Below are positions 1 to 57,504 of a stretch of 64,000 nucleotides of DNA, one piece after another. The notes below the pieces were generated by a model. The model searched no databases and was not told where the DNA came from. It was given only the letters and a program-made list of their open reading frames with translations. The DNA lies in the NCBI GenBank assembly GCA_008632985.1, contig QPGO01000217.1, forward strand, positions 1 to 64,000, read 5' to 3'. Both the position numbers and the translations under genes were made by a program. This DNA comes from Psammoneis japonica. Its lineage: Eukaryota. Numbering within the stretch: position 1 is the stretch's first letter; every line of letters starts with the position of its first letter.

Positions 1-1399
1 CGAATCTTGGATCTCTGATTGAATCGTGGAGGTCCGATGTTGTTGTAAAAACATGCAAATGTGAACATTGTCACAATCATCATGCCAACAAAGACCACAA
101 CGGCCGACAACAACATGGGGCACACTCCTTGCTGCATTGAGAACTTTGTGTTGTCATTGTGAATGATGATTCGGCATGGGTTCAGGGTCATGGTCCAAGC
201 ACTGCAGCAAAAGGCCTTGCATTGGTTGGATCGAAACGCCACCTTGGTTTGTGTTCTTGTGTGCTGCATTTCACGTTTCACTCCGAGCTGTTTCTCTTTG
301 CGGTCGACGCAAGGGCGGCGCCGCACAAAGCAGCGCACCGCACGCAACTGACATGCATCCATCGAGGGACTGGCAGTTGTCTTGGTGCTCTGGTTTGCTC
401 CAGGTTTGCAAATTGGAAAAGGGGCATCTTATGCAGTCACCCCACCAGCATGCATCTTGTCTCAGTGAGAAGCAGATGGGTGGCACCACAGTTTTAAAAC
501 TGATTGCACACAACAGCCAGCCCTCCTGCCTGCTGCTGATGCAAAACAAATCTCCGTGCAGAGGTTAGACTCCTCAACAAAACTCAAGGGGACCCACAAC
601 TTTCTCATTGGTGGAAGGCAAGAGTGCCTACAGACCTGCACATTGGTTTGCTTGTGCGGTCACTTGTTGCTTTAACAATTGGCAAAATTGAGTGTGTGTG
701 AAATCCTCTGTGATGACGCACACACACGTGTGTGTGTGCCTCTGGGTTGTTGTTCAAAGTTGTCTGGATGGCTGCAAGAGGGACGAATGGTTGCAGGCAG
801 GAGACAAAAAACATGGTTTCTTGGAGGCCACGTGTGGAGTGGCCTTGATCTCACAAACCAAAACAGAGCAAGCATGATGAAGGAATTGATCTTTCACAAG
901 TTTGTTGCACCAAGGTTGATGGCCAACTCATCACACAACATGTCAAAAGCACACACAGCCCGTTGGGACAACAGCATTGTTGGGTTTGTTTGCAAGAGGC
1001 GGTTCATTGACAGGGGGGGTGTTCAGGTGCTGCCAAGGTGTGGATGTTGTGACCAGCTTTGATGCTCAAGTGTGACCCTCATGGTGTGCTGTCTTGCCAA
1101 AACGAGTGGCAAAAAGGCCCGGCAGGCTGGTCATTGTGCCGGACCCAGATGTGGTCAAAGAGGTGCTTTTGGCCACTTGGCACAATGTCTTCAACTGTGG
1201 ATGGCAAAAACACAAAAGTCACTGTTTGGTCACAATTGCAACCCTTGTTTTGCATCTTTGACTTGCTGATGGGTGTCTTTGCTTTCACACACATGTGCAG
1301 GCCATGTGAGGTCAGTGCAGGCTGACAAGACATTCATGATGATGTCTTGGTCATTTGGTGGGCAGTGCTGTCCACTTGTCTGGGTCTCATGCTCACTGC

Positions 1400-1674
1400 T
1401 GACAGAAATTGAAGGCAAATGGCAAGAATTCAAACAACAACTCCTCACTGCTGTCTAAATGGCAGATGAGTCTCTGCTCAGAGACCGTCACAGGAGCCAA
1501 AAGACGTGTGAGTCGGTACAATCAGGCTGCTGTCATCATTCTGTGAGCCTTGTGGCTCGAAAGCAAACCACATCGCGCGCGAACGCGCGGAACTGAAGCA
1601 CACAAAACTGTGCGCGGTGAACTGAACAGCACGCAACATTTTGCGCGCACCCAAATCCTGTTCAAATCCTGTCA
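1400..1674 (-). repeat. 3' LTR (275 bp)
   Basis: TGACAG...CTGTCA termini; aligns end to end with 4486-4769. Confidence 0.95.
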
Positions 1675-2375
1675 CTCCCCAGTTTGCTTGAGGGGTCACA
1701 GAAACAGATTCGACTTCGGATTGACTGAAGAACTTTGGAGTCAAAGCACCAAAACATGAGGAGACAAGAAAGGATCAAGATCCTGGAGCAACGTTGCATT
1801 CTCCAAGTGGGTCATCTTGAGATGAGCTGCGTCTCCCCAATTGCAGATGCCATTGTGCTTTTCAAAGCTCAAGGCACACTTGGATCTTGTGGGATTCCAC
1901 ATCCGCACTTGCAATGGAAGGAGCAAAGCTTGGTCTGGTTGACAATGTTGAAGGGCGGGACAACATCACAGGACAATGCAAACAAGTTGAAATCGCCCTC
2001 ACTTCCTGAGCAAAGGTCGTAAAGACTGACAGCCGTCTGTTGGTTCTTGGAACGGTTGCCACACTGGGCTGCTGCTAGAAAAACAGAGCAATGCTCGAGC
2101 AGGGTGGCATGGCGGTTGCACAACTCGGGGAACAGAGCAAGCATGAGTTCAAAGGCACAAGCAGCGGTCTTGTGTTCCACCAATCTGACTGCAAACTCAG
2201 CTGCATCTCCTGAGAGACTGATCCAATTGGACAAACGAGTCTCAAGGTGCAAGCCTTCGGGGATCGGATTGGAGCAAGATGTCTTGTGGTGCAAGACTGC
2301 AGATGTCTGGTTGGGGCAACCAGCCCCGTGCTGCAAGACTTCTGGAATCCAAAAGGACTTGCCAGTCTTGTGACA

Positions 2376-2765
2376 CGAGTCTTCGGGGATCTAATCAGGA
2401 GGCCAAGTCTTGAGGTGCGAGACTTGGGGGATCCAATCAGGAGGCCGAGTCTCATGGCGCAAGACTTGAGGGATCCAACCAGGAGGCCTGGTCTCGAGGT
2501 GCGAGACTCGGGGGATCCAACCAGGAGGCCCAGTCTCGAGGCACGAGACTTGAGGCATCCAATCAGGAGGCCTGGTCTCGGGGTGCGAGACTTGGGGCAT
2601 CCAATCAGGAGGCCCAGTCTTGAGGTGCAAGACTTGGGGCATCCAATCAGGAGGCCCAGTCTCGAGGTACGAGACTTGAGGCATCCGATCAGGAGGCCCA
2701 GTCTCGAGGTGCGGTGCAGGGAGGATCCGAGGCCTGGTCTCAAGGTGCAAGACTTGGAGGATCCA
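2376..2765. repeat. 42-bp tandem array (~9 units) inside the LTR element
   Basis: Unit approximately gagacttggggcatccaatcaggaggcccagtctcgaggtgc; appears as 14-aa repeats in several ORF-track frames. Confidence 0.92.
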
Positions 2766-3530
2766 AAGACAACGAAGCTGCTTGGATGTCCTGAACTCCT
2801 CATCTGATGAACTGGTTGAACTGTTGTGAACAGATTCAATGATGGGAAAAGGAGGCTCCCCATCAGGAGATGCAAGAAGCAAGTTGTCATCTCCATCACT
2901 TCCCAAACGAAGGCTGTGAAGGGTGACAGCGGTCGACACGTGGAGGTTGGCAGCACGTGGTTTGCGGGGTGCAAAGGCTGCAGCTTTGGAAGCCATGGGT
3001 GGAGTGTCCCAACTGGTCTCGAAGTGCGGGCCTGCGCAAGGGTTGCAATCCTGCACTGGGCCGAGGTTGCTTGCAGGCGGGTTGGTCAAGACATGCGGGG
3101 CGCGACTGACACCAGTTCTGGGGGACACCTGAGTGGCGGCACAGTGCAAGGCTGGTGTCAAAATGGCACCGAGTTCACCTGGTTTGGATGGCAAGGGACT
3201 CGGCACAGGTGCGGAGGGTGCTGCGCCAGTGGCTGGAGAGGTCAAGTGGTCCGGACCAAGGCGGCAGTTGCGAAATTCCTCGGGTGTGAGCAACTGGGGT
3301 TCATTGGTCACATCATCACCGTTGCAAACTTTGACAAAGTAGAAGCTGATCAAAGCGGCTAGGAGGTTTCTGTGGGTGCGTGGCAAAGGCACTGCATTGG
3401 CGCCGTCTCTGCAAGCGAGGGTGTCAATTTGGGACAGGGCAGAACAAAGAGGGCTGTCATCGTCTTGATTGAGCACAGTGCCTAGAATGCATTCAAAGCT
3501 TTTGGCTTGTTGCTGTTGCGTGAGAACCAT
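2391..3530 (-). pseudogene. Degenerate CoDi-like gag N-terminal ORF running into the tandem array
   Basis: MVLTQQQQAKSFECILGTVLNQDDDSPLCSALSQ resembles the diatom copia gag start (MV..R....F.HIL..VL....DSPL..AL, recalled from memory); lies between the LTRs in the sense implied by the PPT. Confidence 0.65.
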
Positions 3531-4485
3531 GACGGAGGACGGTGCAGCAGAAACAAAAGACAGGAACCAATCTAGAGCGCGATCTTGGCTCGGAGTTTTG
3601 ACTTGGAACTTGGCTTGAAAAAGACTTGACTTGAGCTAGACTTGACTTGAAATCTTGGACTGTCTTAAAATCAGAAGTCGCCGGGTTGTGCTGTCCCGTT
3701 TGCAGTTGAGTGCCAAACTTCCCATCCGGTCCGTAGAGTTGTGCTGGCACGTCCGAACCCACGGCTGGCGGCGCTTTGGGTTGCTCACAAGCGGAGTGGC
3801 GGGTTGCAAACCCCTGCAGGTGAGCTGACCAGGGGTGGACAAGACCCCCAAACCGTTCTCATTTTACATCGGTTGGATTTCCCGATCAGGCTGGCCAGTT
3901 GATGCAGGCGTTGGGCGCTGTGGACGAAGGAACCAACGCAGAAAAAAAAACACCCTCGCCCCAACGCAGGCTGCAATCACGGCTGCTTGCTCTCACAGTC
4001 ATCCTCATGGACCCAGTGGAACTGCAGAGCACCAGCAGTCTGGGCAGATCAGGCACAATGGACTCGGTGTGCTTGTGGAGTGGTGGCAAAGCCGCAGTCC
4101 AAAGAGTGGGTTCAAGTTCTTGGCCGTGAAGATGTGTGTGTGTGCATGTGTCTTCAGCAACGCAGATCCTTGAATGTGCAGGGTTCTTGACCGTTGACCG
4201 TTGAATGGGTGCATGAAGGGATGAGGATCAAGGATGGACTTGGATGCAACCGATGAATGTGTGTCTCAGCGACAAAAGGCAGGTGGTCAATCCAGATGTC
4301 CAGCGGCAAGGAGACTTGATGGCGACGTTAACTTCCTGCCGATGCCTGGCATTGAATGCGCGCAGACTTGCCGATGTACGTAGAACACACACGGAGGTCC
4401 ACGCAGAATTGAAAAGCGTCATCGGCAAATCAACGACGATGATGGCGGTTGCTCAATGGGTTGACAATGAGCAAGACTGTCAATC

Positions 4486-4769
4486 TGACAGAAATTGAAG
4501 GCAAATGGCAAGAATTCAAACAACAACTCCTCACTGCTGTCTAAATGGCAGATGAGTCTCCGCTCAGAGACCGTTGCAGGAGCCGAAAGACGTGCAAGTC
4601 GGTGCAATCGGGCTAGGGCCCTACTGTCATTATTCTTGTGAGCCTTGTGGCTCGAAAGCAAACTGCATCGCACGCGAACGCGCGGAACTAAAGCACACAA
4701 AACTGTGCGCGGTAAACTGAACAGCGCGCGACATTTTGCGTGCACCTGAATCCTGTTCAAATCCTGTCA
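4486..4769 (-). repeat. 5' LTR (284 bp)
   Basis: TGACAG...CTGTCA termini; aligns with 1400-1674. Confidence 0.95.
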
Positions 4770-6574
4770 ACTGCACTGGATGCTGCATGCTGCCCAGCCC
4801 AAGTGGCAGCAGCAACCAAAAATCAAAGCACAGTGGAAGATTGAGGTGAGGCTCTTCCAGCCAATGAACTGCAAGACAAGATGCCCCCCTGGTGCCTGCC
4901 AATGGAAGTGATGTCAAGAAGTCAAAGGGTGTGGGGCACACCCCTGTGGTGCACAGCCAGAAGCTGCAGCAGCAGCAACAATGCCCAAGCTTTTTGCTGG
5001 TGATGCTGCACTCAACAACAGCACATTGTTGGCAAGGCCATTCTTGCAAGTGCAAAAGTTGTTGTGGAAGCAAGGAAAAGAAAACAGATCAAGGCAGCAC
5101 TTGTCTGTGTGTGTGTGTGTGCAACTTGGCACTTTTTTGTGAAACACCAACAGTGTGGAGATGATGATTTGGCATGGGCTCAGGGTCATGGTCCAAGCTC
5201 TGCAGCAAAAGACCTCGTCAGTTGGATTGAAATGCCATTTTGGTTGCATTGGTTTCACTTTTCACCACTGTGTGAGAGCTGCATTGGCTGTGGGGTGGTT
5301 CTCCACTGTTCTGTTTTTGTTGCTGTCAATGCAAGGGCAGCAGCATCACACAAAGCAGCCATCGTTCTCCACTCTAGAGCAGAGAGCATTGGAACAAAAT
5401 GGGGACTTTGAGTTGTCTTGGTGCTGGTCAACCACTGGCTCGCATCTTGTCTCAGCAAGAAGATGGGTGTGACAGCACTGCAGATCCAAAACTGATTGCA
5501 TGACAGCCCTGATGAAAATCTGGAGGTTTGCCTCACCAGATTCAGGTGAACCCACAACTTTGTCATGTTGGTGAAAGGCAAGAGTGCTTGGGGTCCTGTG
5601 AATTGGGCTGCTTGCATGGTCATTTCTTGCTTCAACAGTTGGCAGAATTGAGTGTGTGTGCTCCTCTGATGTGTGGATTGTTTTTCAAAGCTGGACAAAA
5701 ATTGTTGGACAAACCATGGTCACCTGCAGACACCAAACATGGTTTCTTGGAGGCCAGCACTTGCAGAGAGCAGTCTTGATCTTGCAGACAAAAGCAGAGA
5801 AAGCATCAAGCTGGTGCATCAAGGTTGGCTAATTTGTCACACAACATGTCATGAGCACTGCCAGCTGGGGTGACAACATTGCTGGGTTTGTCTGCAAGAG
5901 GTGGATCATTCTTGGCTGGGGGGTTTCACGTGCCACCAAGGCATGGGTGTCAGCCATGACCAACTTTGATGCTCAAATGTGGCCCTCCTGGTGTGTGGTC
6001 TTGCCAAAAAGAACAATGAAAAGTTGAGGCTGGTCATTGTGCTGGATGCAGTCAAAGAGGTGCTTTTGGCCACTTGGCAATGTCCTCAGCTGTGGGTGGC
6101 AAAAAGACAAAAGGCAGGCTGATGAACCATTTGTGTTGATTTCTTGGTCATTTGGTGGGCAGCATTTTTGTCCACTTGTCTGGCCTCAGGATCCCTGGAC
6201 ACATCATGCTGTCCAGCACAAGCAGCAGCAGCAGCCAAAAATCAAATCGCATGCTGAAAGATTGAGGCAAGGTTCCGCCGCAGCCAATGAACACCAAGAC
6301 AAGATGCCCCCCTCGTGCCCACAAATGGAAGTGAAGACAAAGAATGCAGCACTCTTGCACACACTTGCACACACTGCCCTCCTCAGCCAAGTGCATTGTC
6401 AGCCACTTCATTGCTCTAGAAGGAAAATGCACATCCCACCTCCCCACCAATGATGGTGCTGCCATCAAGATCCAGCAACCACATGTTGGCCAAAACTCTG
6501 TCACTTTTGACATCCTGCTGCTCCACATCATTTCATCCATTTCCTCTCTAGACCCAAGTGAATGTTGAAAGTTT

Positions 6575-7940
6575 AAGGATCTGACATGCCCACATCAACA
6601 AATGGCACAAAAAGACTTGTGCTTTGCAGAACATTGGTCCAAATGGGCCACTGTGACCACTGCAAGCTCTTGCAGTCACTCACAGGCCTTTGGACATGGC
6701 GGGGCGATTTTAGGGAAAAAGATGGCAACCCTGCAGCAGGGCCCCACATTGTGTGACACTGCACATGAGCAATGCAGTGCTTGGGCCATGGGTGCACATG
6801 CTCTTGACTGCTGCACAGAGAGTCTGTGTGGCACGATCACAGGACCCCCCCCAATGCCCCACTGCATCCAAAGCCCTGGTCACTGACATCAACACTGACA
6901 AAATGGCAGGCAAAATGAAAATGCAAGTGGAACAAAAGCACACACAATTGGGAATCACCAGGACACCTGTCACAGCACACTTGCCTGGCCACCTTGCAGA
7001 GGCAGCTCTGAGTCACCCTGCTGAGTTTCATGGTCTCAAAAGTGTTGCCAGCAGTTTGTGGCATCTGCACATCCAAGAGGAGGTGAGGAGTCCGGCAAAA
7101 CAACCCCCCTTCTCTCTGTCTCACCCAGCACAAAGCCCAGACTCACAGCTGCACTGCCAAGATGTGACATCTTCCAAAATGAGGTGTGTGACATCATGTC
7201 TCAGATGGCAAAGACAGTGTGGTTGCATTGCGGGAAGAAAGGGTTGGTGAAGACCAGATGCCACCAGTGTGCATGAACAAGGCAACACACAATGAACACT
7301 TGCAAGGCATGCAAGCTTCATCAAAATGGCCCCAAAACTCAATCAGTCACAGCGTGCTTTATTTTGCTCATGCACAGTGCTGTCAGAAATTGGGGTGGCA
7401 AAAAAAATGACGTGCCATCATTGTGCACTGACCAAGACCCCCCAAAAAGACACTGAGTGCATCACAAATCCATCTTGTTCAAATTGGGTGCACCAGTGGA
7501 TGCAAAGTGGAGAGAAGCACAAGGCTCTCTCAAACGGATGTGCTGTGGTGGTGCAAGTGTGCAAATGCCATCAAAAAGACACCAATGTTGCAGACACAAT
7601 GACCGGCTGCACCAGATGATTGACTTTGCAGGGTGCAACAAAAAGCCACAATGATCTTTGGCAAATGGGAAAAGGATGCCAAACAAGAAAACATGGAAAG
7701 AACTTGCCACAGCAATGTTGTTGACCATTCAGATGTCACCCGGACAGCACAGCAATTGAGTCACAAGTCAACAAGGCACAGAGCTGTTTGTGCTGTGTGT
7801 GGCAACCAAAGCCCCCCCCAGGAAACCAAACCCATGCACCAACCTCTTCACTTGTGGCAACAACAGAAAAAGAACCTGCATGAAAAATGCATTGGCTCCA
7901 TGATGTTTGCCATGTCAAAATGCGTCAAAGTGCAGTGTGC
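6575..7940 (-). mobile_element. Degenerate dispersed repeat, copy of 28239-29450; probable CRE-like non-LTR retrotransposon fragment
   Basis: Colinear shared blocks with 28239-29450: aaggatctgacat, aaatgcaagtg, ggcagctctgagt, cagcacaaagcccagactc, tgcaacaaaaagc...atgatctttggc, ccaggaaaccaaa, gtcaaagtgcag. The family is inferred only from the adjacent motif in the other copy. Confidence 0.55.
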
Positions 7941-7999
7941 CATTTTCCATGCCAAATCAGGAATGTTTGGGTCCAATTGACTTGTTCAATCACTGTGCA

Positions 8000-9112
8000 A
8001 TCCAAGGTCTGATGATTCTCCAACACATCCAGCAACAAGACTTTGCAATGGTCCCAGCTTGTCGTGCTGGCTGAGTGCTCCTCAGCTGTTTCAAGGAAGA
8101 TGAATGCTGGCCTCGTGCTGCTTGTCACAATCCGTTTTGCCAAAACAAGACTTTTGTTTTGGCCAGCTGCCATTTGGCCCCTCTTTCAAATGTCTCCACC
8201 ACCAGTGCCACCAACAAACAGAAGCTTGCCCATTGCACAAATGTTTCTGCAACATGCGAGACAAACATTCTTTTGCCATTGGACAACACAGACACTGGCG
8301 CCCTGTCTGTCCATCTTGCATGTTTACAATCAGGGACTGCAGCACATTGCAAAGCCTCCCATGCAGATGCAGATCCGATGCTGTGTGCTCTTGCAACTCC
8401 AGAATGTCTTTCATCTGTCTCCAGCCCTCATTCTGACCAAACTTGTCCACATGGAGTGCAAGAACATGAGCTCAGAGTTTTTGCATGCTGCAGCCCTTTG
8501 GATGATTTGGCTCAAGCTGTTTTGCCAACTCCATCATTTTGACAGCATGTGGCAGATGCATCCCAAGGTCCCTGCATTTCTGGTGACATCAAAGTCCACA
8601 TGTTGCCAGCTGCCGGCATGAGTTTTTGTTCTCAAGCACATGTTTCAAAGCTGGAGGTGCAGCTGATGAATTGAAAACACCCATTTTTCAGTCAAGTCAA
8701 GAACCACAACTTTGTCACACAACTCACCAGGGAAGCAAATCTGAGTTGCTTTTGTCATTGGTCTTGTTTCATCCAGATTGCACTCCAAGTTGAGACCACA
8801 AATGGCCTCACTGTCAAGATTGGAAACCTTGTTGGCCATGCTGAGGGCCCAGTTCTTGACCTCAGTTTTGGTTGAGAACACAACAAACTTGTCTTTTGCC
8901 AAAGCGGCCCAAAAAAGCCCATCTTGAGACTTGCACTGCCATGGCTTTATGTTCTTGTGCAGTTCTTGAAACACATTGGGCCACAAACTGTGGTCTCCAC
9001 CACCATTGCCTTCAGCCCTTTTCAGCTCAGCAGCCCTGCTCTTGGTTTGTGCAGTTTGGCAGAGTGCAAAATGTGGCCTGAGCTCATCATTTGATTTTGT
9101 GTGGGAAAACAA
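8000..9112 (-). pseudogene. Degenerate transposon-associated ORF remnant with a possible DEDD 3'-5' exonuclease ExoI-like motif
   Basis: ICGLNLECNLDETRPMTKATQICFP resembles VGLDxEW...xxxQL; KVLLLDVLE downstream. Heavily mutated; motif similarity only. Confidence 0.3.
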
Positions 9113-12100
9113 TTAAAGTTGACCTTGCCCTCATTTGACAGGGAATCACACATTGAGAGGAACTTTTTTCTTGCTTGCTTTGATGCTGGCACCATTTTGG
9201 CAAACTCAAATGAATGGTTGCTGCTCTCTGAGTTGTCAGGGTTCAAATGGAAGCTTTCCTGAAAATGTGACTCACAAATGTTCACAACTTGGCAAGGGAA
9301 ATTGTAAAGCCACAACAGCGTCAGTGCAGCGCAGCATGTTTTTTAAAATGTCAAGCTGCAACAAGAGATGCACCTGCAGAAACACCTTTTCAGGAGACAT
9401 GGACGGTTTCAACAGCACACCATTGCACTCATGCCAGCAGACTGAAACAAAAAAAGCTGCAGGACAAAATCACCATCTGACGCAAGAGCTTTTTGGCCTG
9501 CCACCTTGTCAGAAAGCATGTCATCCCCTTCCTCCTGGCCTCATGGTGCCATCTCATTTCTCGCCATTTCTGCAGCTGCCCTGAGATTTTCCAAGGCCTG
9601 AATTTGCTTTTCCTCTTTGCTTTTTTGCTTGCCAATCAATGTTTGCTCCAAAGCCCTGCACCTTTCCCTTGCTCTGGCCACTTGCTGCTCCACTTTGACT
9701 GCTTTCTGATGCTTGATTTCTTGTCTGGCATGTGCTTCCACTGCCATTGCCACCAGCAAATTATTTTGCTTTCATGCCATCTCTTCTTCAAGCATCATGC
9801 TCAGCCCCTGGTGGGGTTCCTTCTTGTCTCCTTTGATGTGAGCCACTCTTCTGTCAGAGCCTTTTCTGCTGCCACCGCTGCCAGTTCTGGTGCCTGTGGT
9901 GATGGGTGCTGTCATGGTGTGTTCATGCCAACATTGCAACACCCAGGTTGCTTTGGCAGCATCCTTTGCATTTGGCCATGTCACACTGCAACCAAGCCTC
10001 AACAACAAAATTTAAAATGGGATTTGCAATGCATGTGAAGCAAGGCACAGGCTTGTTGCTCCTGAGTGGTGGGGCACAAGATCAGATGGCATCTCTTGCT
10101 TTGACCACTGCACAACACAATGTTTGTTGAGGGGATGATCTTTGTGGGTTTCTTCATCAAAGGCTTGAGGATCAAAAGTGAAGCATTCTGTGGAGGGTCA
10201 TCTGGTTGTGCATGAATCCATGCACCAGCATGTCAAAATGTCTGTCATTGTGGCCAGTTGGTTTTGTCTTTGATTGTCAATTGCCTGATGCTGGCATTGC
10301 TCTTGACTGGCATGATGACGACCAATCTTGTGATCCTGCATGTTGACTTGAAAGACGACTTTTCCAAAACAATCTTGTCACCATGTGTTGCTCTCACCAC
10401 ATGGCTTGCATCATTGATTTCTGCTTCATGTGCATCTCCACCTCCCTCTGTTTGCAACATGAACAATGGTGTGCCTCCTTTGCTCCAGTGTCCAGCGGGA
10501 AATGATTGTCCCATGTGTGGCAAACATTTCCTTCCAACTTGTCTTCAACATCACCTCAGAACTCATCTGAGATGCAAACTTGCCTTTTCTCAACACATCT
10601 GTGTTTCAGGCAATGAATCAGCAGGCATTCACAGCAAAGTGGCATCATCAGAGGAGCCCAAAGATCCTCCCATTGAAATGGCTGCAACTGGGAACAGTTT
10701 GTCTCACTCAAATGTTGCACCTGCTCCACAAGTTCACTTGCAACACAACCCTTGGCCATTGAAATCCAATCATGCTGTGGCACTGGTGCAACAGTCATGT
10801 TTTCCCCTTGAGACACCACCATTTGGCCAGGCACCAACAATGTTCCAGAGTGTGCGTTCCCAGACAACAATGGATCGGTGGTTTCTGAAACATTTGGTGA
10901 CAGCAGGTCTCTTCTTGTTTCTGACATGTTTGCCACTGATGTCAACTCAGGTTCTTTTGTTGTGCTGGATTGAATTGAGCCCCATTTTGCTGATGATGAT
11001 CTTGTTGTCTGTCTAATCTTGACATTCCTTTTGAGTTGCTGTTGTCTCAGGTCCTCTCCTCTGGCAAACAGTTTCAGGTTGACAGGAGTTTGGTCGATGA
11101 GAGAAACAGAGGGAGTGATGGCAGCATTTCACCACAACAGATGCATGGCAAAACTGATGTGCTGTTGTCAGGTGCAGCTTTCTCCACTTGCTCAGCTTGG
11201 GCAACCACCATGTTGATGCAGTCCACAGGACACGGTGGCAACAGGCACAGCTCTCAACCGGCTGGCGCAGCAGTCACTGCTCAGGGAGCAACAACACCAG
11301 CCATCCTCTTCATCTGTGTCATCGGATCAAACTGGAAGCAAAAACTGTGGCCATGCCACTGCTGAATCAAGCTTGACAAGCATGAGCAGTTCCACCTCTG
11401 CACAGCTGGGAACTCAGAAAAAGAAACACAGAAGCCATGGCAGTCATCTTGGAGTGCAAGTTTTTGATGGTGCAATCTGAATCACAGCTTTTTGAATCCA
11501 TGCTTTGCATCTGGAATGGTGACAAAAAATTGTGGATCTCTCAGCCCTTCCTGTTTCTGGTTGTCAAAAGAGAAGGATCCCAACCCGGCTCATGAGATCC
11601 CACTGCAGCCTTGGTTGCACCATGCAGGCAGAAGGTGGAGTGGACCCAACTGATTGCAGGGTCAACAGGAAGGCCACTTTTGTCATTTTGTCATTGCAAA
11701 TGATGTGAAGTGAGCTGCCATCACAATTTTCTGGGACCGTTCTTGTTCTTGTGTTTGCCACAGCAGGTGAAATTGATTGGGGATGAGCAAAACATGCGGG
11801 GGGGGGGCAACAACAAAACACGCACAAAAACAACACACAGGAAAACTTGCATGACAGTTGTCACTGATGTGCAAATGGCAAGTGCAACTGCAACAGGAGA
11901 CATCAAAGAAAATGCTTCTAGTGTGGAGAGATGACAGATGGCCATTTTCAATGAATCTCATGGTCTTTTGACTGGGTTGGATGGGCAAAAACAAAAGATC
12001 GTCATCATTTCTGTCTGTCTGCAGTTCATCTGTTGGAATGATGCCGGCAGATGCAACTTAGACAGATGCTCAAGACCCATCACACTTGTGGTGGAAGCCA

Positions 12101-12932
12101 GGTGGAGGGGTGCAATTTTGGGGTGTAAAAACACGCGTCCCTTAAAAAACATTGCAGCCAACAAATCTGGCACCAGACAGAGACATGCATTTTGTGTCAT
12201 TGACCACTCAGTGGTTGGTGATTGCAGACTTTTTCATGTTGGTTTGTCAGTTTGTTGCCATTTGAAAGTGTGTCCCTTGGATTTTGGAATGGCATGGGCT
12301 CTTTAGTGTGCAAGTGAATCACTCGAATTTGTGGAATGATCATTGAGGACATTGTGGTTCATGGGGACTTCCTAAAAAATTGACAAATTCTCTGCGATGG
12401 GTGCGTGGAACTGTTTTTCAGTGGAGCTCGAAAATGCTGTAAAAGATGCATTCCAGCTCTGGGTGGGACCGCACACTGTGATGCTGAACTCATGGATGCA
12501 CCAAACTGTGACATCGACAGTTTTTTGGATCGTGCCACATGTCGTGCACGTGGAAAGGTGTGTGACTTTTGTGAAAATGTGTGTCATTTTGTGGCACACT
12601 CATTGAGCAATCTGTCCAACAGCTTTTGACATTTTTTGTTGCAGCACAACAGAATTGTGCAGGGCAGGCACATTGTTTGCAAAAATGTTGAGTGGTGAGA
12701 GGCACAATTGCACCTCAAACTTGGCAGTTTGTTTGATGTTGAAGACAAACATGTCCATTGATTTGCTCACACTGCGGAGCTGGCACGCAAAATTCCAGCG
12801 ATTTGATGTGCGCAAGGTTGCAGCGGAGCCGCCAAATGCCATGGTGTTTTGATGCAGTCTCATGAATGTTTCTTGCCATGACTTCCAGCTTGTGTCAACA
12901 ATTGATTTGCGATTTACAGTCATCCAATTTCA

Positions 12933-13389
12933 CACTTTCTCGTTCATCCTTTGGTCGACCTGGATCGGGAGGCTGGGTGGTGGGGACAGGTGGTCAGGAG
13001 TGGAGAGTGCTTCACCAGTGCGCCATGACGCCTCTCCAAATCCCAAGCTGGACAGCAGGGCCAGAGGGTGGGAGAGGTGGGAGCGATTAAAACCATCAAG
13101 TTGTTGCTTTGCTCTTCGGAAGAATGAGAGGTGCAATGGGGAAAACAATTGTCCCGAGGTCAGAGGGTCATTTTCAACGGTTTTTCTGTGGGGTGACGAT
13201 GACCAACGGTCACAGGCCCCTCTCGTCCGTTGGACTTTTCAAGGACAGCGGCTGCCACCACTTTTCTCATTCATCCTTCGGTCAACCCGGATCAGGAGGC
13301 CAGGCAGTGGGGACAGGTGGTTGGGAGTGGAGAGTGCTTTGCCAGTGCACCATGATGCCTCTCCAAATCCCAAGCTGGACGCCAGGGCC
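12933..13389 (-). repeat. Ngaro 3' repeat block B2-A2-B1 (+ strand order)
   Basis: B2 12933-13062 and B1 13259-13389 share ttcatcctt...ggggacaggtgg...ggagtggagagtgctt...cctctccaaatcccaagctggac; A2 lies between them. Confidence 0.93.
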
Positions 13390-13480
13390 GCCAGCGCCTC
13401 CCAATGAAAACAACGTGGAGTCAGAACGGGCCACGAGGCTTGGGTGGGTGGGTGGGCCCGGCTGGCGGGCTGGTGGTGAA

Positions 13481-15367
13481 TCACGGGGGTTCTGGATGAA
13501 GGGGAACCTCTGCGTTGGGGTGGAGGACAAAGTCTCCACCTGCCAGCATGCGTCTGGCAAAGTTGCGCATGATGGGTTCTGCCTGGAGATGAAGGTGACA
13601 AAGCATCTCATCCGATCGCCACCAGCCCAAGAGCCGGATGACGTCAGTGTCAACACGGGTGCAAAGCAAGGCCATGGCGCCGGCGGCGCGGAGACAACGG
13701 GCCAAAATGTCGGAAGGGTTGAAACCCAGGTTGGCAGGGCGCCAATGGCAACGACGGCGGTGCGCAGCACGGAGGAGATGTCCGCCGGTGAAACACGATG
13801 CCATCGATTGTTGGCAAAATGAACTCCCAACGGGGTGTCTGGGAGCACGCCATGAGCGCGGAGGTGTTTGACGCGTTCAACAAGAGCAAGGACAGGGCAA
13901 AGTTGTGGGTGGCCGCAGCGGCCTAAACCGACAACTTCGCCGCGGACGCCGTTCTTTTGATCGGTGAACGCAAGTGTTACGAAGGTGGCGGCATCAAGTT
14001 GGGCGTCAGTGGCTGTCCAAATGTCAAGGTAAACACCGCCCAAGGAGAGCCGTATGTCAGCTGGGCGGAAGGGGGTGGTGTCAGACGGGGTGGCGGTGTG
14101 TTCGCCAGGCCGAAGGAGAAAAAAGTGAGCCAGCGCAATCATGCTGGCAATGGCCTTGGTTCCTGTGTGGGGTGTGAAGGCGGCAGCGTGGAGGATCCAA
14201 AAGAGGATGGCAACGGGGACCAGTTTGACCCGGTCGGGTGGAGGATCCTCTTTCTTATAATGGCAAATTTGTTGGCTGAGACCCGTCGCAGGCATGTAAT
14301 TTTTGCCTGCAATTTTTAGCAAGCGCCTGTAATTTTTCGTACAAAAACAGACTCATCATCGTCCATGATGGCAACAAACATCAGAATGTTGAACAACAAT
14401 GGCAACCAACAATCAACGACGAACTTCAACCAGCAAGAGATGCAAGAACTCGTTGATGGCGAACTGTTGTGACACATGTGTGAAAGAAACAATGGCGAAA
14501 AACGATGAGATTGCCATTGTTAACGGACAACAAAATGAAGGCAAGTTCATGCCATTTCAGAAGAAAAACACGTCATGTGGTCGCTGAAACCTTGGCCACG
14601 GATGCAACAGCAACATGTGATGTTAATCACGTCATTGCAAATGGACCAGACTTGTCAGAACAATGATTTCATGTGTGCAAGGTTGCAGCGGAGCCGCCGA
14701 ATGCCATGGTGTTTTGACGCTGTCAACAGAATGTTCAGCTTCGTGCACACATGAGTTAATTAAAATTAGAGATGTGGAGTTATACCTGCTTCGATGTCAA
14801 CAATTTTTGAGGAACACACATTCCATGAATGTGTCATTCCTCGCAGAATTACAGACATCCAATTTCACACTCTCGCAGTCGTGAGAAAATCTGGTGTGAT
14901 TTTGGGGTGTAGATTTGCGCGATGCGCGTTTTTACACCCCCAAATTACACCCCGAATTACACCCCAATTTCCACGACTGCAACGGGTCTGAGGCGGAAGT
15001 CCAACTGGCCTTGGGATGTGTGTCTGGGGTCTGGGGTCCCCATTGCCAAGAACGTTTGCCCAACTGAACGCACGGCATCCTCAGCGGTGCGTGCGTGGAC
15101 GGGATTTCCGCGGGGGGCGATGGCGCCAGTCCGGCACCGATGCAGGAAGACTTGAAGGTAGACGATGGGGTTGGGAACATCTTCGAGGAGTGGGTCGAAA
15201 ACCAGTTGGGTGCTGAAGTTGGACCAGAGACTCCAGTGGGAATCGGCGGCGGAGGAACATGAAGCAGTGACACCATGGGCAACGGCGTGTTGCGCAGCAC
15301 TGAGATCACGAATGAACGCAGCGCGGGTGGTGGGGTCCACATTCACCAGGAGGAGATCTGTGGACAA
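13481..15367 (-). pseudogene. Tyrosine recombinase of the Ngaro element, split by a MITE and frameshifted
   Basis: GQLDFRL|SQQICHYKKEDPPPDRVK rejoins across the MITE. LAHFFLLRPGEHT, FTDQKNGVRGE, LRAAGAMALL and RLLGWWRSDEMLCHLHLQA are present; the catalytic Tyr now reads His. Confidence 0.9.
14280..14988. mobile_element. 709-bp MITE / non-autonomous DNA transposon (PIF/Harbinger-like)
   Basis: TIRs GACCCGTCGCAG / CTGCAACGGGTC; TGA duplicated at 14277-14279 and 14989-14991; removal restores the YR frame. Internal blocks also match 12107-12140 (inverted) and 12810-12935. Confidence 0.88.
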
Positions 15368-15399
15368 GTGGAGTCAAAATGGTGCAAGAAATCAGAGTT

Positions 15400-17388
15400 A
15401 GAGAGGCGCTGCATGCGAGAAGCATCGTCTGCTGCACTGTTGAGGGGGCCGGGTGCACAGTCGTGGAGGCCAGTGTGATGGTGACAGCGTTGGTGGTGGG
15501 CTTGGCCCCGGAGGAGATGGGAGGCCAGTTTGATGGTCGTGCTGGCTCCTTTGCGTTGCTGAAACATGGTGCCGAGGTTGTCGGCATGGGAAAGGAAAGT
15601 TCATTCCCTGATGTCGCAGCAATCCGCCATGGCACAGGACTGAATGAAGCTGCCTGTGAGCTCAAGGTCAGTGTTGGTGATGGGACCCTTGGGGTTTTCG
15701 CAGGTGCCAAGGCTGGCGGTGATGTCCTTGGGAAAGGGCATCTGCCACACAATGGGGTCCAGGCATGTGTGAGGGTGGATGCGTCCGGTGCCAGTGCGGA
15801 GTTGAGTGGCTCGTGGTGTGGCTGTGGGAGTTGGCAGTGGGACGCCCCCGGCACCATGGCCGGCTGCATCGTGACAACCCCCAACAGTGGGCTCCAACAG
15901 GACTGGCTCTTGAATGCGGGTGGGGTGTGCATCGAGCGTCGTACACAGGTCTCGAAAGTCATCGAGAATGGCGTGCACATTCTCCGCAAGCCGGAGGCGT
16001 GCGTCGGGTGTGGCGTGGCAGAGATTCTCCTGCAGAACAGAGAAGAGTCCTCGAGCTCTGGGCAAGGCAATGGCGAGCAAACGCAATTCGCCCAAGAGCT
16101 TCTGGCAATCAAGGACAGTGGTGCGGCGGCGGCTCCGGGGAAAGTCCTGGTGCAGTGTGTGGCAAAGGCGTTCTCGGCGGCGTGGTGTCAGCCGCAAGGT
16201 CATCGACTGAGTGTCGATCAACCAACCGAGGACCTCCTTCTGTGTGGTCCACGTTGCATTGCCCTTGCGGAGCTTTTTGATGGACATGGGCTCCTTGCGA
16301 GTGGGCGAGTTGTGGAAATCGGTGGGGCGGAAGATGTCGTCGATGGCGTGCATGACAACTCGGTGTACATTGCCGCGGGCAGTCTTGTCGCCCTGGGCTG
16401 CACCGATGAAGTCGTCAACACAAATGTCGATGCATGCTAGATGCCAACATTTAGAATGGTTTGGGTGTGGGTCGGATTGGGCTGGAATGGGGATGGAGAG
16501 CGCCGGGTCTGGTGGTGGCGTCGGTTGATGTGTCGGCGGATGGCTCTCAGCGAGTCGCTCCAATTGGTGTGGCGGTGCTGTGACATTGTGGAGCAAGGCC
16601 TGATTGGATGAGTCAGCCACAGTCTTGGTGCCTGCACTGAAGATTGGTGGCGAATTAGCCCAGCCCATGGGCAGGCATGTCGGCATTGCCACAAGGCGTG
16701 GCTCACCTGGCAATTGTGGGAAGGAGACACCCAACAGAGGTGCACGATCTTCAGACAGGAAAACTCGGCAGAAACCATCCGACAGGTCTATCTTCATGAG
16801 ATGGACTCACCCCTTTTTTTGGTTGGCGAGGAGAATGTGCCAAAGTGAACGGTCCAATGCTCGGCCGAATTGCATGGCCCCCATGGGGGCACTGGGCTGC
16901 ATGGCTTGATTGACCCCAAAGCAGGAGCAATCAACAATGGGACGGGGCTGTCTGGCATGTTGGGGTGCCACGCCTGTTGGACTGAGGTGCAGACCGGGAA
17001 CGGTCTTCACCTCCTCATGCGGCAACACAACCCAAAAACCTTTTGCAATGTAGCCGTGCATGTCTTCGCGCAAAAAGTCGATGTGCTCCCAAGCGGACTT
17101 GTGTGGTCCCCTGGCGACACTTGCTTCTAGCTCTTCAGCCGTCCACCGGGCATTGGCGACCATGATGGGCGCTCCCCGTGTCTGACCCCAGTCCCCTCTC
17201 TTCCTGCGATGGCGAAGGAGGTAACTGAGACCTTTTTGACGAAGTGCAAGTGCATCCTTAAGAATTTGCTTGCCCAGTTTGTCCAGCTCAGAGTTGGCAA
17301 TGGTTTGCCCATGGAGGGTGGGACGACCATGGCTCTGCTGAGCACGTGGATTCTCCACCTGTGGGGGTGGCGGGCCTGGAGCCGTCAC
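15400..17388 (-). pseudogene. Reverse transcriptase/RNase H of the Ngaro element
   Basis: KGFWVVLP, LHLSPTGVAPQHARQPRPIVDCS, AMQFGRALDR, KIDLSDGFCRV, LPMGWANSPP, CIDICVDDFIG (YVDD), KEVLGWLIDT, CHDAAGHGAGGV, ITNTDLELTG; internal stops and frameshifts. Confidence 0.92.
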
Positions 17389-17409
17389 CGGCTCCAGATG
17401 AAAAGGCTC

Positions 17410-19000
17410 TCAGCAGTCAGCCCCCGAACCGATGCTGCTGCCAAATTCTTGTTCAGTTTTCCAATGCTCCGTGGCCCATTTGAGGAGCGAGGACTGCTCT
17501 GCGTTGGTGTGGCGTCCATGGTGGTCATTGCGGGATCCACAATTGGTGTTGCATTGCCTCTTGATGTGGCAGGGAAGGCAACGGGCAGTGCCATTTGAGT
17601 CAACGGGCAAGGCAATGTTGTTGCGAGCGCAGCGCTGCTTGACATCACGCAAGCGGACGTTTGGGCGATCACGAACGGAAGAAAAACGGTCATCGCAGTT
17701 TTCATTGTGAACAATGGAATTGTCGCCCGGAGTCTGAGCTTGCCCAGCAGGTGAGGGTGCAGGTGCTTGGGCTGATCCCAGATGCTGAAGCGGTCCCGTC
17801 GAGCTGTGTGTCGGTGGGCCTTGAGGTCGAACGGCAATTGGCAGCGGACGTTGCCAATTGCCCTTGGCCGCCTCGTAAATGACATTCTTGGGCGTGAACA
17901 GAACGGGATTGTGCATGGACTCTTGATCTTTAAACCAATGATGGATTTCGATCTGAACACAGCGCTGGAAATCTGCGGGCAGCGCAGGGTGACACGTCAT
18001 CTGCAGCGCAAGATCATTGGTGCAAACGTCCAAGGAGTGGCGCAGGTCCATGAGACAACAGACGACCGGGGGTGGGCAGCGCCTGAGGCCGCGGACAGGA
18101 CCACCCAGAGTCCATCAAGTGAGTGTTGGACAGCCTGCACAGTGGCAGCAACCTTCGCATCGTCCGGTGCTTCAAGAACCACAGTGTCGGACAAAGATGG
18201 CGTGCCCATGCCACCATGAATCTGGTGGCACAGAGCCACACGGTGTGCCATCTGTTCCACCTGTTGAGGAGCAGTGAGGCCGAAAATGAAAGGGTTGACA
18301 CCTTGAGCGAGGTCATCTTTGTTGTGTCCGGCCAATGAGAGTTGGGCGAGCTTGGTGACCATGCTCACTGAGATTGGAATCTCAAAACAGACGCTTTGTG
18401 CCTGACGTTGCTCATCCACAGTGTTCTGCACTGTGGCGATCCGTCCCGTCTTGGGCGCAGCAGCCAAACGTTGCCACAAGGGCAGCAGCTGGTTCTCTTG
18501 ATGCACCTGGCACAATCACATGAGCTTTGTAACCCCGTGTTCTCCACAGAACTGCACCGGTGTCTTTCTGCGATTGGCTGCCTGCTGGCGGGCCTGGGCA
18601 TCCAAACGCTGTTGCTGTTGTTCCGCGGTGAGATCGTCAACAGCGCGAATGACCGGCTGAAATTGCGGTCCTGGCATGGCCGGTGCCCCAAATCCAGGGA
18701 GATCGTGTTGTGTGCATTGGTCGAAAAAACGAATCAGGTGCTCGTTGGGTGGTTGGGGGAGAGTGGGGTCACTCGGTGCAAACCGCCGACTCCTTGCCAT
18801 CAACTTGCATCGTGACACATGTGACACGAAGAAAATCCAGAAGTGCCCGGCAATCGGCCACTCTGTTTGCCACGTCAAGCGCTCCACACACGCGTGTGTG
18901 CACCTCCTTGGGGGTCAACGGTTCTGGTGGGAGTGACTTGACCAAATCAAATGGCACGAACATGGTCCCTCTAGTCCGCACCTCCTCCGAGTCCACGTCG
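17410..19000 (-). pseudogene. Ngaro gag-like ORF, 3' part
   Basis: Fragmented ORFs directly upstream of RT, ending in a Cys/His knuckle (RCLPCHIKRQCNTNCGSRNDH); EEVRTRGTMFVPFDLV motif. Confidence 0.7.
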
Positions 19001-20026
19001 TGTGCTGCTGCAGCAGGATGCAACCCATGTGTGGAGAGGTCGTTGGATGACAAGGAAGAGTCAAGTGCCCGATGAGCTGTTGAATGCAAATTTGCATTCC
19101 CAGAGTTGCTCCTCCTCCCGACCACTTTGACGCAAGCATTGGGTGACAGGTTGGGTCCCGATGCACCTTGTGACGCCAAGTTTGACATTTCGCAAGCAAC
19201 AGAGAGACATTGTGGATTACGATTTAAGTGACCGAGCATGCGCTGGAAGGAGCAATGGCAACAGGGACAATTGATTGCGTCTTCACCCTTGTTTTCGGAC
19301 TGCGGCAGTTCCATTTTGGTGTTTTTGTGGAAAGAAACGATCACGCATCGGCGAGAACAATTCTGCGAATGGACGCGGCTGAGGTTTGGTCGTGTGGACG
19401 GTGTGTGTTGTCAGGGTGGGCAGGATGCAAGACACAAAATTGGCGCAAAAATGGCGATCATTGATCATTTTGCATCAATGAATGCTTTTGCAGTTGCCTG
19501 ACAAAAGGATGCGTTGGGACAATTGAACACTTTCAGGTTGTGCAACAAATGAGAATGCAAAAACTTGCCAACGGAAAGGGAAGAGCAAGTTAGAACACAG
19601 TCTTCGGAACATTTTGTGATCACCGCTCACTGTCAATTCGTTGACTTGCGCACGCAGTGAAAAGGCTCGGGTTGTCCCATGTCCGTCAGTTCCACCATTG
19701 GGGCGGCGTCAATGCATCAAAAACAACACCCGTCATGCCACAGCCGTGCAAGCAACCTTCAGTTACACCATGGCTTCCATTGTCCAAAACGACACGTTGC
19801 TGGCATGCTGGCCTGATGACTGCTGGAGGAAATTGGCTGAGGTGGAGAGCAAGGGACAAGAAGCAAAAGAGGAAAAGATGGAGGCGGACTGCCACGCAGC
19901 TAAAAAAGAGCCAGGTCGCTGGTTGGGCACTGGGAGGAAGGAACCATCCAAGAACCCCTGCTTGCAAAGAGACTGCATGGACATGTGTCATTTAATCTGC
20001 TCGCACAGCAAAGTCACACGCGGTGA

Positions 20027-24569: not shown

Positions 24570-24739
24570 GCGACCAAAACTGTCGAGTTGTTGCTTTGCT
24601 CTTCGGAAGAATGAGAGGTGCAACGGGGAAAACAATCGTCCCGAGGTCAGAGGGTCATTTTCAACGGCTTTTCTGTGGGGTAACGATGACCAACGGCATC
24701 ACAGGCCCCTCTCGTCCGTTGGACTTTTCGAGGACAGTG
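24570..24739 (-). repeat. Ngaro split direct repeat A1 (matches A2, 13083-13250)
   Basis: ttgttgctttgctcttcggaagaatgagaggtgcaa...tctcgtccgttggacttttc is present in both copies. Confidence 0.93.
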
Positions 24740-30582: not shown

Positions 30583-30763
30583 CCAAAACATTAATTAGAA
30601 AGTACAGTCTTCGCCGAAAGTTAAATTCATCATATAGCACTGTAGTTGACATTATTTTTCCCGCGGAACCGTGGACACCCTGCGAACCCCAAATATTTTT
30701 TTAGCTCGCAAAACTTTTTTTGCTTTTTTGCTGCCAACCCTCTCCGACACCCATTTTTCAACA

Positions 30764-31870
30764 ATGAGCACCTGGTTTCATCACTACGCGACCCTAGCTG
30801 GCCTAGAAACCAACGCCCATGGTGGCGTGTATGCCCCTGGTAAGGCCTATAGCATAGAAAAGAAAATTGAATTAGCAAACGCGTATTTTGAGCTCCTGGA
30901 ATCTACAGGTGAAAAGCCGTCCGGACGCGCCTTGGCGAAGGCGGTCAAAGTATCTCCCACTTGGGCCCTCAAGGTCGTTGACGAGCTGCTCAGCGACGAT
31001 GGATTGATTGATCCGAATCATCAACGACCTCAGCGTCTAAAGGGTCCAGGCGCCAAAACGATCGACTCTCTTGACATGCTCACACTGGTGTTGCTGCTTC
31101 GAGAATGCCCGAGTCGGACACTTTCAAATTATCAGACGGAACTGTTCAACAGGACAGGTACACTTGTATCCATCAGCACTCTCCACCGCTTTTGGAAAGA
31201 CGGTTTTGACACAAAGGCAAATCTCCGTAAAACCGACAAGGTCCCCATTGACAAATGCAAGCCTGAAAACATCCAACGAGCGATTGAATATATTCAGCTT
31301 GTGTTATCGCTGGACCATAATCGCATCAAATTTGGAGATGAAAAGTTGCTGAAGGCAGCAGAGATATTCAACAAGCGAGTCAGACGTGATCCCATTACAG
31401 GGGAGGTGTCTCCTGTCATCACCGACCCGGACTTTCGGAACACGCACACGATAATTGGATTTTGCGGTGTTGATCCAAGGTCGTATCCCATGTTCTTCAA
31501 CATCAATGATGGAACAAATGATTCAACTGCATTCGCCACTGCCATTGAAGAGGCGATTCTCTCTGCATTTTTGTTGCCTGGGGACGTTCTTGTACTCGAC
31601 AATGCTAGCATCCACGTGCATGGCGAGAACTCGGTGCTAGAAGATTGGCTCTGGGACAATTTCAACATTCATCTGCTGATGCTTCCAGCGCGCTGCCCCG
31701 AATTGAATCCTATTGAAAAGCTCTGGAGTGTATTGGTTGCAAGACTCAAGCAAATGCGGATATTGGGGACTGGGGCTGATCGGTCCGCTCATTGCGCTGC
31801 CGCCATTGTGAATGAATTCACCACGGATCTGGTGAAGAAGATGTACCGCAAATGCGGATACAATGTCTAA
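30764..31870 (+). CDS. IS630/Tc1-like DDE transposase (368 aa, DD38E)
   Basis: N-terminal HTH-like segments (SGRALAKAVKVSPTWALKVV; VSISTLHRFWK); catalytic IKFGDEK, VLDNASIH, LPARCPELNPIEKLW; 38 residues counted between D2 and E. Confidence 0.93.
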   Translation: MSTWFHHYATLAGLETNAHGGVYAPGKAYSIEKKIELANAYFELLESTGEKPSGRALAKAVKVSPTWALKVVDELLSDDGLIDPNHQRPQRLKGPGAKTIDSLDMLTLVLLLRECPSRTLSNYQTELFNRTGTLVSISTLHRFWKDGFDTKANLRKTDKVPIDKCKPENIQRAIEYIQLVLSLDHNRIKFGDEKLLKAAEIFNKRVRRDPITGEVSPVITDPDFRNTHTIIGFCGVDPRSYPMFFNINDGTNDSTAFATAIEEAILSAFLLPGDVLVLDNASIHVHGENSVLEDWLWDNFNIHLLMLPARCPELNPIEKLWSVLVARLKQMRILGTGADRSAHCAAAIVNEFTTDLVKKMYRKCGYNV

Positions 31871-56750: not shown

Positions 56751-57504
56751 AGAGTCTCGAATATTTGTTCCATATAATATAGTATCTCTTGTTGCATTCA
56801 GTTTCTTTTTAAGTAAAATTGCGAAAGCAAAATCCGTTCCAATCTTCCTTGTCTGTCCTCGTGCTGTGTTAAAGTTCAGTTTGTTTCGGAAATCAAACAA
56901 GTTGAAATCGCACGCTTCTCGTTGTATGAAACAGTTTCGCATTCAGTCTTTAGGCCTTCGATAGATTGTCGGAACATTCATCCCGCGGAGCAACAAGCTC
57001 ATAATGGCGGGATGCGATGATTGAATCGGAAACAGCCGCCGCCGCCGCCGCCGCCAGTATGTGAGCGTCGCCCAGCTTTTTTTTTTTATCCGCAATTTGA
57101 TCCTCGACTCCTCTTGGATAACGACAGCTACGCCATGCGGTGCTGTGAAAGCACAAAAGAAGCCTCAATGTCGATGTTTCATGTGCGCTTCATCGAGTTG
57201 GACAGAAGTGCGTTTACGTTCCCTTGGGGCATGGCACATGCATTTATGGCTCGTTGGAGCTGCGACAAGGAAGCCTTACAAGGAACGTTAAAAATGCTCC
57301 TTGCCGTTGACACAGTCATTGGAGTGCGGGATCTTTGGATTGGCGGCAGTGGTTGTCAAAAGTGAGCCTTTCGACGGAGCTCAGTTCTCAACGCGAGAAA
57401 CCAAAGGGCCCTCTAACACTACGAAGTCAATTTCCAGAGAGTCGGAGTAGAGCGAATAAACCAAAATCTTGAAAATTTCATTTAAACTGTTGTCGCCATT
57501 TGGC

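Follow-up and report, generated by a model that had tools for sequence, protein, structure and literature searches.

Repeat-induced point mutation (RIP), as it occurs in Neurospora and other ascomycetes, makes TpA from CpA by G:C to A:T changes and enriches its targets in AT. In addition to the decay of methylated CpG, the silent DNA of some protists may be exposed to a further process: in integrated viral DNA of the chlorarachniophyte Bigelowiella natans, A:T to G:C hypermutation was recently described that is restricted to TpA and exceeds the background ~1000-fold (Mettrop et al., bioRxiv 10.64898/2026.01.13.699255). The process is reported to be episodic, and an adenosine deaminase was suggested as the activity behind it (same preprint). 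In the literature searched, this single preprint of 2026 is up to now the only account of a TpA-aimed process confined to silent or mobile DNA, and no report of TpA-directed mutation in diatoms was found. In diatoms, transposons are methylated through DNMT5a (PMC9998398). Here, a stretch of 64,000 nucleotides of the diatom Psammoneis japonica (assembly GCA_008632985.1, contig QPGO01000217.1, positions 1 to 64,000; referred to as the window) was analyzed, in which an element of the long terminal repeat (LTR) type is located at 1400-4769. The two LTRs of this element differ exclusively by transitions in pyrimidine-purine (YpR) steps. The reading that we favor, at a probability of roughly 0.8, is that an LTR element inserted into an eroded tract and that its LTRs were then changed by two context-bound transition processes.

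Differences between the two LTRs

A preliminary description of this DNA, made by eye, had counted about 16 substituted sites and two indels between the LTRs and had assigned every site to one of three classes, namely TA-vs-TG/CA, CG-vs-TG/CA or CA-vs-TG. Global alignment of 1400-1674 with 4486-4769 (275 aligned columns) yielded 20 substituted positions at exactly 16 dinucleotide sites as well as the two indels, and the example sites quoted in that description proved to be correct. The indels consist of 8 bp extra in the right LTR (~4613-4623) and of one T that is absent from the left LTR after 1541. Five sites are TA-vs-TG/CA (left/right: TA/TG at 1518, TG/TA at 1529, CA/TA at 1537, TG/TA at 1595 and TG/TA at 1619), seven are CG-vs-TG/CA (TG/CG at 1475, CA/CG at 1499, CA/CG at 1524, CG/CA at 1577, CA/CG at 1631, CA/CG at 1635 and CG/TG at 1646) and four are CA-vs-TG doubles (CA/TG at 1489-90, TG/CA at 1509-10, CA/TG at 1569-70 and CA/TG at 1652-53), so that each site indeed belongs to one of the three classes. 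Site 1529 adjoins the 8-bp indel, which makes the alignment ambiguous at this site.

All 20 changes are transitions, and the claimed lack of transversions was confirmed. YpR steps cover 144 of the 275 aligned positions, yet all 20 changes lie within them, while none of the 131 non-YpR positions differs; the many substitutions outside TA and CG contexts that had been named as the pattern speaking against the preliminary description are thus absent. Since changes that are all transitions in YpR steps fall into the three classes automatically, the real content of the comparison is the restriction to YpR steps, the occurrence of transitions only and the excess of CA|TG doubles. With doubles counted once, the probability that 16 of 16 events hit YpR steps is 0.524^16 = 3e-5. 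Measured against three repeat pairs that lie mostly outside the mutated tracts, in which YpR transitions account for 27 of 88 differences, the probability is ~6e-9. Chance was rejected as the source of the YpR-only spectrum. Four double steps stand against an expectation of 1.3 (P = 0.046). They are without exception CA|TG and never TA|CG, which in combination with the excess gives P ~ 0.003.

Structure of the element and its insertion

The element spans 3,370 bp and is bordered by identical 5-bp target-site duplications (ACTGC), which were read directly from the letters at 1395-1399 and, after the right LTR, at 4770-4774; its features are given without assignment to a strand. Both LTRs have TG..CA ends, start with TGACA and finish with TGTCA. 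As determined from the pairwise alignment and from composition, the left LTR (1400-1674, 275 bp) contains 2 TA and 16 CG and the right LTR (4486-4769, 284 bp) 6 TA and 19 CG, the left being the copy with the greater loss of TA and CG. The 8-bp insertion private to the right LTR (4613-4623), the placement of which in the LTR alignment is ambiguous, carries or abuts two TA, and in contigs of the same family 7-8 bases are absent at this position. Older and diverged duplicates of both flanks lie ~4.8-5 kb downstream, where 5161-6162 corresponds to 163-1365 and 6195-6340 to 4776-4917. As the two flanks are adjacent in this duplicate, which is uninterrupted across the insertion point, it serves as a paralogous empty site (6114-6251). 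Identical target duplications, TG..CA ends and the paralogous empty site demonstrate that this is a genuine LTR pair from a single insertion. The differences between the LTRs therefore post-date integration, and the proposal that the spectrum arose after insertion is upheld.

The internal region (1675-4485, 2,811 bp) holds 15 TA where 146 are expected and 118 CG where 203 are expected, and harbors within it a 42-bp tandem array of ~13 units (2236-2781). A recognizable gag or pol was not detected by Pfam or Atlas: none of the 8 open reading frames (ORFs) of the element matched a retroelement Pfam family, the sole match being a sub-threshold one to LSM_int_assoc (E = 0.019), and an Atlas search with the 414-aa ORF gave nothing at 0.9 or above, the best value of 0.86 not being usable. 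Terminal repeats with TG..CA, the 5-bp target duplication together with the empty site and the presence of many copies are structural hallmarks of an LTR retrotransposon, and these were found. Because gag/pol coding capacity was not found in the 8 ORFs by Pfam and Atlas, the element is read as a non-autonomous or degraded LTR retrotransposon. The first 23 bases of the element occur exactly twice in the window, at the starts of the LTRs (0 expected), and a second copy of the element was not found within the 64 kb. Directly next to the left LTR (beside 1674), the minus strand shows a short run of purines, GGGGAG, which may point to this strand as the one on which the element is read; erosion of TA and CG may have altered the signals of the primer binding site and the polypurine tract. 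Long stop-free frames without a family match were observed on both strands in 1-20000 (e.g. 2391-3635, 414 aa). As loss of TA erases TAA and TAG, ORF length is no evidence of genes in eroded tracts.

Direction of change

Four lines, namely composition, family copies, doubles and a pair of a gene and its partial copy, agree on TA to TG/CA and CG to TG/CA as the direction of change. In the whole element, 23 TA were counted compared with 179 expected (~8-fold depletion) and 153 CG compared with 239 (odds ratio, rho, of 0.64 for CG), and TG and CA together amount to 612 compared with 414 expected. A process that makes TA would enrich it; the element and its tract are almost without TA, which argues for the direction TA to TG/CA.

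Family copies were read from contigs of the sequencing runs that hold the stretch (4 runs of one sample from one study), of which run X1 was used. On the element, 4,939 X1 contig pieces were placed at 80% likeness or more. X1 depth peaks on the LTRs at 10-90x that of the central internal part, and contigs pass from the LTR end into other internal sequence, showing that the LTR family is highly repeated. Variable places in X1 comprise 199 transitions and 21 transversions. Among rows in which the family shows another letter (241 in all), the 40 best supported were considered and 39 were classified: the family has TA where the element has TG/CA in 15, the reverse was found in 0, and the remaining classified rows are 5 with family CG, 2 with window CG, 3 adjacent pairs resembling CA/TG doubles and 11 other.

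Three states are present at site 1518 (TA in the left LTR, TG in the right and CA in family contigs) and also at 1569-70, where CA and TG of the LTRs are joined by TA in one family contig. An ancestral TA is required at these two sites, unless the ancestor was CG and extra steps occurred, and both agree with the earlier suggestion that a single ancestral TA or CG decayed on different strands in the two LTRs. At 1619, A makes up 35% of X1 depth. In the CG class, family CG was seen at four of the seven sites: family contigs read CG at 1524 and 1577, and G is present in 93% of X1 depth at 1631 and in 98% at 1635. Among nine repeat pairs of the window, 39 CA|TG doubles and 0 TA|CG doubles were found, as is predicted by independent decay of self-complementary TA and CG on either strand. 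In the repeat pair 58434-58790 and 57387-57739, all 8 TA-vs-TG/CA differences have TA in 58434-58790, which lies within an ORF with a DUF6691 match. The other member, 57387-57739, is a partial duplicate of the 3' end of this DUF6691/sulphur-transport gene and reads CA (6) or TG (2); its frame is kept for ~235 nt, and it lies on the margin of a stretch poor in TA, with a single TA in 57601-58000.

Some further positions were multi-state. At 1517-1521/4603-4607, two adjacent YpR steps read TA+CA in the left LTR, TG+CA in the right LTR and CA+CA as well as CA+TG in the family; two TA steps may have followed each other here in the ancestral LTR, perhaps as a TATA-like promoter motif. TG is shared by both LTRs at 1624 and at 1642; the letters of the family are TA at the former (100% of X1 depth) and CG at the latter (97%). 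The shared TG was either inherited from an already eroded source copy or results from parallel losses. Polarizing the 42-bp array by majority rule gave a noisy and mixed outcome (e.g. TG>CG 4, CG>TG 3); the array probably predates the insertion and was not used. A metagenome scan for family copies returned 0 loci with a 28-mer and, with a 21-mer, 2 loci that match over 21-22 bases only and represent chance.

Rates of loss and LTR dating

Rates were estimated with a model of independent loss per copy and random strand choice, under which half of the double losses are invisible. According to this model, each LTR would since insertion have lost a fraction q_TA of 0.71-0.75 of its TA (95% interval 0.47-0.89) and a fraction q_CG of 0.18-0.23 of its CG (95% interval 0.08-0.38), corresponding to a per-site rate ratio TA/CG of ~5-7 and to -ln(1-q_TA) of ~1.2-1.4 per TA. 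The implied number of ancestral TA steps is ~12-14 per LTR, which comes close to the 16-17 expected from base composition and only moderately exceeds the ~10 derived from the genic TA odds ratio. We infer these rates, like the direction at individual sites, from the comparison of copies.

Divergence at non-YpR positions is 0/131, with a 95% upper bound of 2.3% (<0.011 per site per copy), compared with a naive LTR divergence of 7.3% (7.9% by the Kimura two-parameter model). Naive LTR dating thus overestimates the age more than 3-fold here, in line with the warning given in the preliminary description. Should the activity come in episodes, as in B. natans, the divergence would not be clock-like at all. 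The methyl-CpG effect is already known to inflate LTR ages. Only the TA part of the divergence is unusual, and its CG part is probably this ordinary effect. LTR ages in such genomes are inflated and not clock-like, and should be taken from non-YpR sites only.

Composition of the window

The erosion of TA and CG extends beyond the element. In the older right flank (4770-12000) rho is 0.03 for TA and 0.11 for CG, at 13-20 kb it is 0.13 and 0.74, and in the genic parts of the window it is 0.55-0.63 and 1.0-1.1, respectively. G+C is 0.48-0.56 in the element and its 20-kb tract, in which TA rho is 0.02-0.17, compared with 0.45-0.47 in genic parts. In 1-kb bins, TA rho is 0.01-0.20 at 1-20 kb (except 14-15 kb, 0.30), 21-25, 28-30 and 49-53 kb, and 0.37-0.84 in the gene-bearing regions at 30-48 and 53-57 kb, with intermediate values at 48-49 kb (0.21) and 57-58 kb (0.26). 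CG depletion was found only within TA-depleted bins of the window. As 13-20 kb is depleted of TA yet has kept CG, TA loss is independent of prior CG loss; it is faster than CG loss and can occur without it.

ORFs at 30-48 and 53-57 kb carry cellular domains (kinase, helicase, SET, Smr, ankyrin, LRR and cNMP-binding). For the helicase ORF at 36469-37734, the named organisms among the 74 best relatives are all diatoms of more than a dozen genera with 49-59% identity, followed by other ochrophytes at ~40% identity; an Atlas search with this helicase returned no informative taxon. A DDE_3 transposase ORF (30650-31870, plus strand, E = 1.3e-13) lies in DNA with normal TA (rho ~0.46-0.51), which indicates that not every mobile-element gene in the window is eroded.

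Two old dispersed duplicates, 584-1221/5542-6116 and 6895-7838/28355-29378, are 69-73% identical and located in fully eroded DNA. They contain 10 and 23 CA|TG doubles, respectively, and 0 TA|CG doubles, with almost no TA or CG left, and seem to show where the process observed in the LTR pair finally leads. A direct repeat, 13083-13248 and 24570-24737 (166/168 bp, 92.9% identical, 11.5 kb apart), flanks a TA-poor and CG-rich block; all 10 of its differences are transitions, 8 of them in YpR steps. The repeat may be an LTR pair or represent the ends of a larger element, and the three long ORFs between its two copies gave no Pfam match.

Proposed explanation

We propose that an LTR retrotransposon, either non-autonomous or degraded, entered a repeat tract of the diatom chromosome in which erosion had already taken place, and that after integration the initially identical LTRs of the element would each have gathered changes from two transition processes, both ending in TG/CA. 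The dominant and unusual one would turn TpA into TpG/CpA by A:T to G:C changes on either strand and would have taken ~70% of the TA of each LTR and ~87% of the TA expected in the whole element. The other would turn CpG into TpG/CpA, presumably by the usual decay of methylated CpG in silenced transposons, at a per-site rate ~5-7x lower. Where the same TA or CG was lost in both LTRs on opposite strands, the pair would read CA vs TG, and all other kinds of substitution would be at least ~60-fold slower than TA loss.

The chemistry of both losses is speculative. Methyl-CpG deamination would be the ordinary explanation of the CG part. For the TA part, our tentative candidate, in line with the proposal made for B. 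natans, is an enzyme that deaminates adenines following a T in silenced DNA, to which we give somewhat less than an even chance, error-prone repair or thymine modification being alternative chemistries. It is conceivable, although doubtful, that a single repeat-directed editing system, acting on both self-complementary YpR steps of silenced DNA, is behind the loss of TA as well as of CG; an equally doubtful example would be a TadA/ADAT-like deaminase that acts on A after T and on C before G under the same chromatin mark. If there were such a single system, the LTR pair would give its relative activities (~5-7 to 1), and diatoms would carry a RIP-like defense of opposite main chemistry that is shared with Rhizaria.

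Alternative explanations

Differences between the LTRs might have been imported as polymorphism of the family, either by ectopic gene conversion or during assembly or polishing with reads from other copies. Copies of the family are very numerous and vary mostly at sites of this type (199 transition versus 21 transversion places in X1), 917 contig pieces fit two places of the stretch, and unique contigs (0 differences) confirm only the two junctions between flank and LTR. However, the states alternate between the LTRs along 190 bp without a block pattern, the right LTR alone has the 8-bp insertion, which family contigs lack, and no transversion was imported though 21 of the 220 variable family places are transversions; the identical target duplications likewise argue against recombination between elements. 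We consider an import unlikely; if it had taken place, the spectrum would be real for the family, while the post-insertion control and the rates would fail. Alternatively, the element might have been edited before it integrated, with an ADAR-type enzyme acting on its RNA or a deaminase on the cDNA as this was being made; an animal precedent is the reported APOBEC editing of LTR elements (PMC4866542). The TG that both LTRs share at 1624 and 1642, where the family has TA and CG, could come from an edited template, yet edits made before integration would be common to both LTRs and not different between them. Both LTRs are copied from one U3-R-U5 template during reverse transcription, which excludes RNA editing and largely also cDNA editing. 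Hits are moreover found on both strands within each LTR, and non-transposon flanks, the old duplicate and the gene copy are equally eroded, leaving pre-integration editing with scarcely any likelihood.

A single chemistry would suffice if C to T changes at CpR, caused by a RIP-like process or by non-CpG methylation, had turned CG into TG/CA and TG/CA further into TA, which would make the TA states the derived ones. All 16 sites would be covered in this way with single hits split 6:6, and many diatoms carry DNMT4 enzymes related to fungal RID (PMC9998398). TA enrichment and falling G+C are predicted by such changes, whereas TA rho of 0.02-0.17 and G+C of 0.48-0.56 were found in the tract, compared with 0.45-0.47 in genic DNA, and neither the 8:0 direction in the gene/copy pair nor the 15:0 ratio of family-TA over window-TA rows (39 classified of 241) would be explained. 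Being contradicted by composition, this very improbable explanation was rejected. Error-prone repair synthesis, in which T:G mismatches from methyl-CpG deamination trigger WA errors of the polymerase-eta type, would link the CG and TA components and is compatible with CG depletion being present only inside TA-depleted bins. Polymerase eta prefers WA motifs; AA to AG or any other non-YpR change was, however, not found among the 131 non-YpR positions, and 13-20 kb has lost TA (rho 0.13) and kept CG (rho 0.74). This origin of the TA changes is in our view quite unlikely.

The reading of two transition processes acting after integration is itself confronted with several observations that weigh against it. 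Family letters are visible at 10 of the 16 sites and fit the direction at only seven of the 16 (three TA and four CG sites), with two uninformative, and strict three-state parsimony applies at two (1518 and 1569-70). An ancestral TG/CA at the TA sites, which the preliminary description had named as speaking against its view, was not seen where this could be tested, apart from 1529, at which family contigs read TG like the left LTR; the TA of the right LTR at 1529 may be part of the 8 bp inserted next to it. One family consensus has CA at 1499. The family rows are a best-supported selection from one sample, maybe the sample from which the window was assembled. Single hits number nine in the left and three in the right LTR, a split that is not significant (two-sided P = 0.15), compared with 6:6 under the model of C to T changes only. 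The hypermutation of B. natans is reported to be almost exclusively A:T to G:C and without a CpG component, whereas CpG is also eroded here, so that the match is partial. Methyl-CpG decay and TpA deamination are both putative in this diatom.

Comparison with known systems

With RIP, the changes described here have in common that they are transition-only and dinucleotide-specific, that they hit repeated or mobile DNA and spare genes, and that they produce sharp domains of composition. Direction and product are opposite, as TpA is destroyed here by A:T to G:C changes; instead of the TpA excess and AT enrichment typical of RIP, TA is ~8-fold depleted and G+C is not lowered. Methyl-CpG decay would account for the 7 of 16 sites that are CG-vs-TG/CA, four of them with family CG, and fits a CG rho that is 0.64 for the element and only 0.11 for the older flank, but it would explain the CG sites alone. 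The editing of LTR retrotransposons by animal APOBEC and ADAR enzymes resembles the present case in its context-biased transitions of deaminase type in retroelement copies (PMC4866542). In animals, RNA or cDNA is edited prior to integration and both LTRs share the edits, whereas here the LTRs differ and surrounding DNA is affected.

Closest is the process in giant-virus and virophage inserts of B. natans. According to the preprint, TpA is turned into TpG or CpA depending on the strand, with hardly any other substitutions; only silent or foreign DNA is affected while adjoining genes evolve normally; the rates exceed background by orders of magnitude; and TA is depleted in the long term with CA+TG enrichment, TA-poor coding sequences being enriched in reverse-transcriptase and DDE domains. 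Of these traits, TpA to TpG/CpA, locality, TA depletion with CA+TG enrichment and a rate far over background were found here as well, with a direction that is resolved at some of the sites. In contrast to B. natans, the host is a diatom (a stramenopile) and not a chlorarachniophyte, the target is an LTR retrotransposon together with old repeats and not a giant-virus insert, and the evidence is comparative, based on the LTR pair, and not derived from mutation-accumulation lines. The LTR pair fixes the timing after integration, excluding editing of RNA and largely of cDNA, shows each TA to be open to hits on either strand, and gives relative rates, TA being lost ~5-7x faster than CG and >~60x faster than everything else. 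Finding the TpA signature in a diatom suggests a widespread genome-defense or chromatin-linked mutator among algae of the stramenopile, alveolate and Rhizaria (SAR) group. Taken together, we file the LTR pair as an instance of the very recently described kind of mutation known from B. natans, to which it adds a side-by-side measurement of TA and CG decay.

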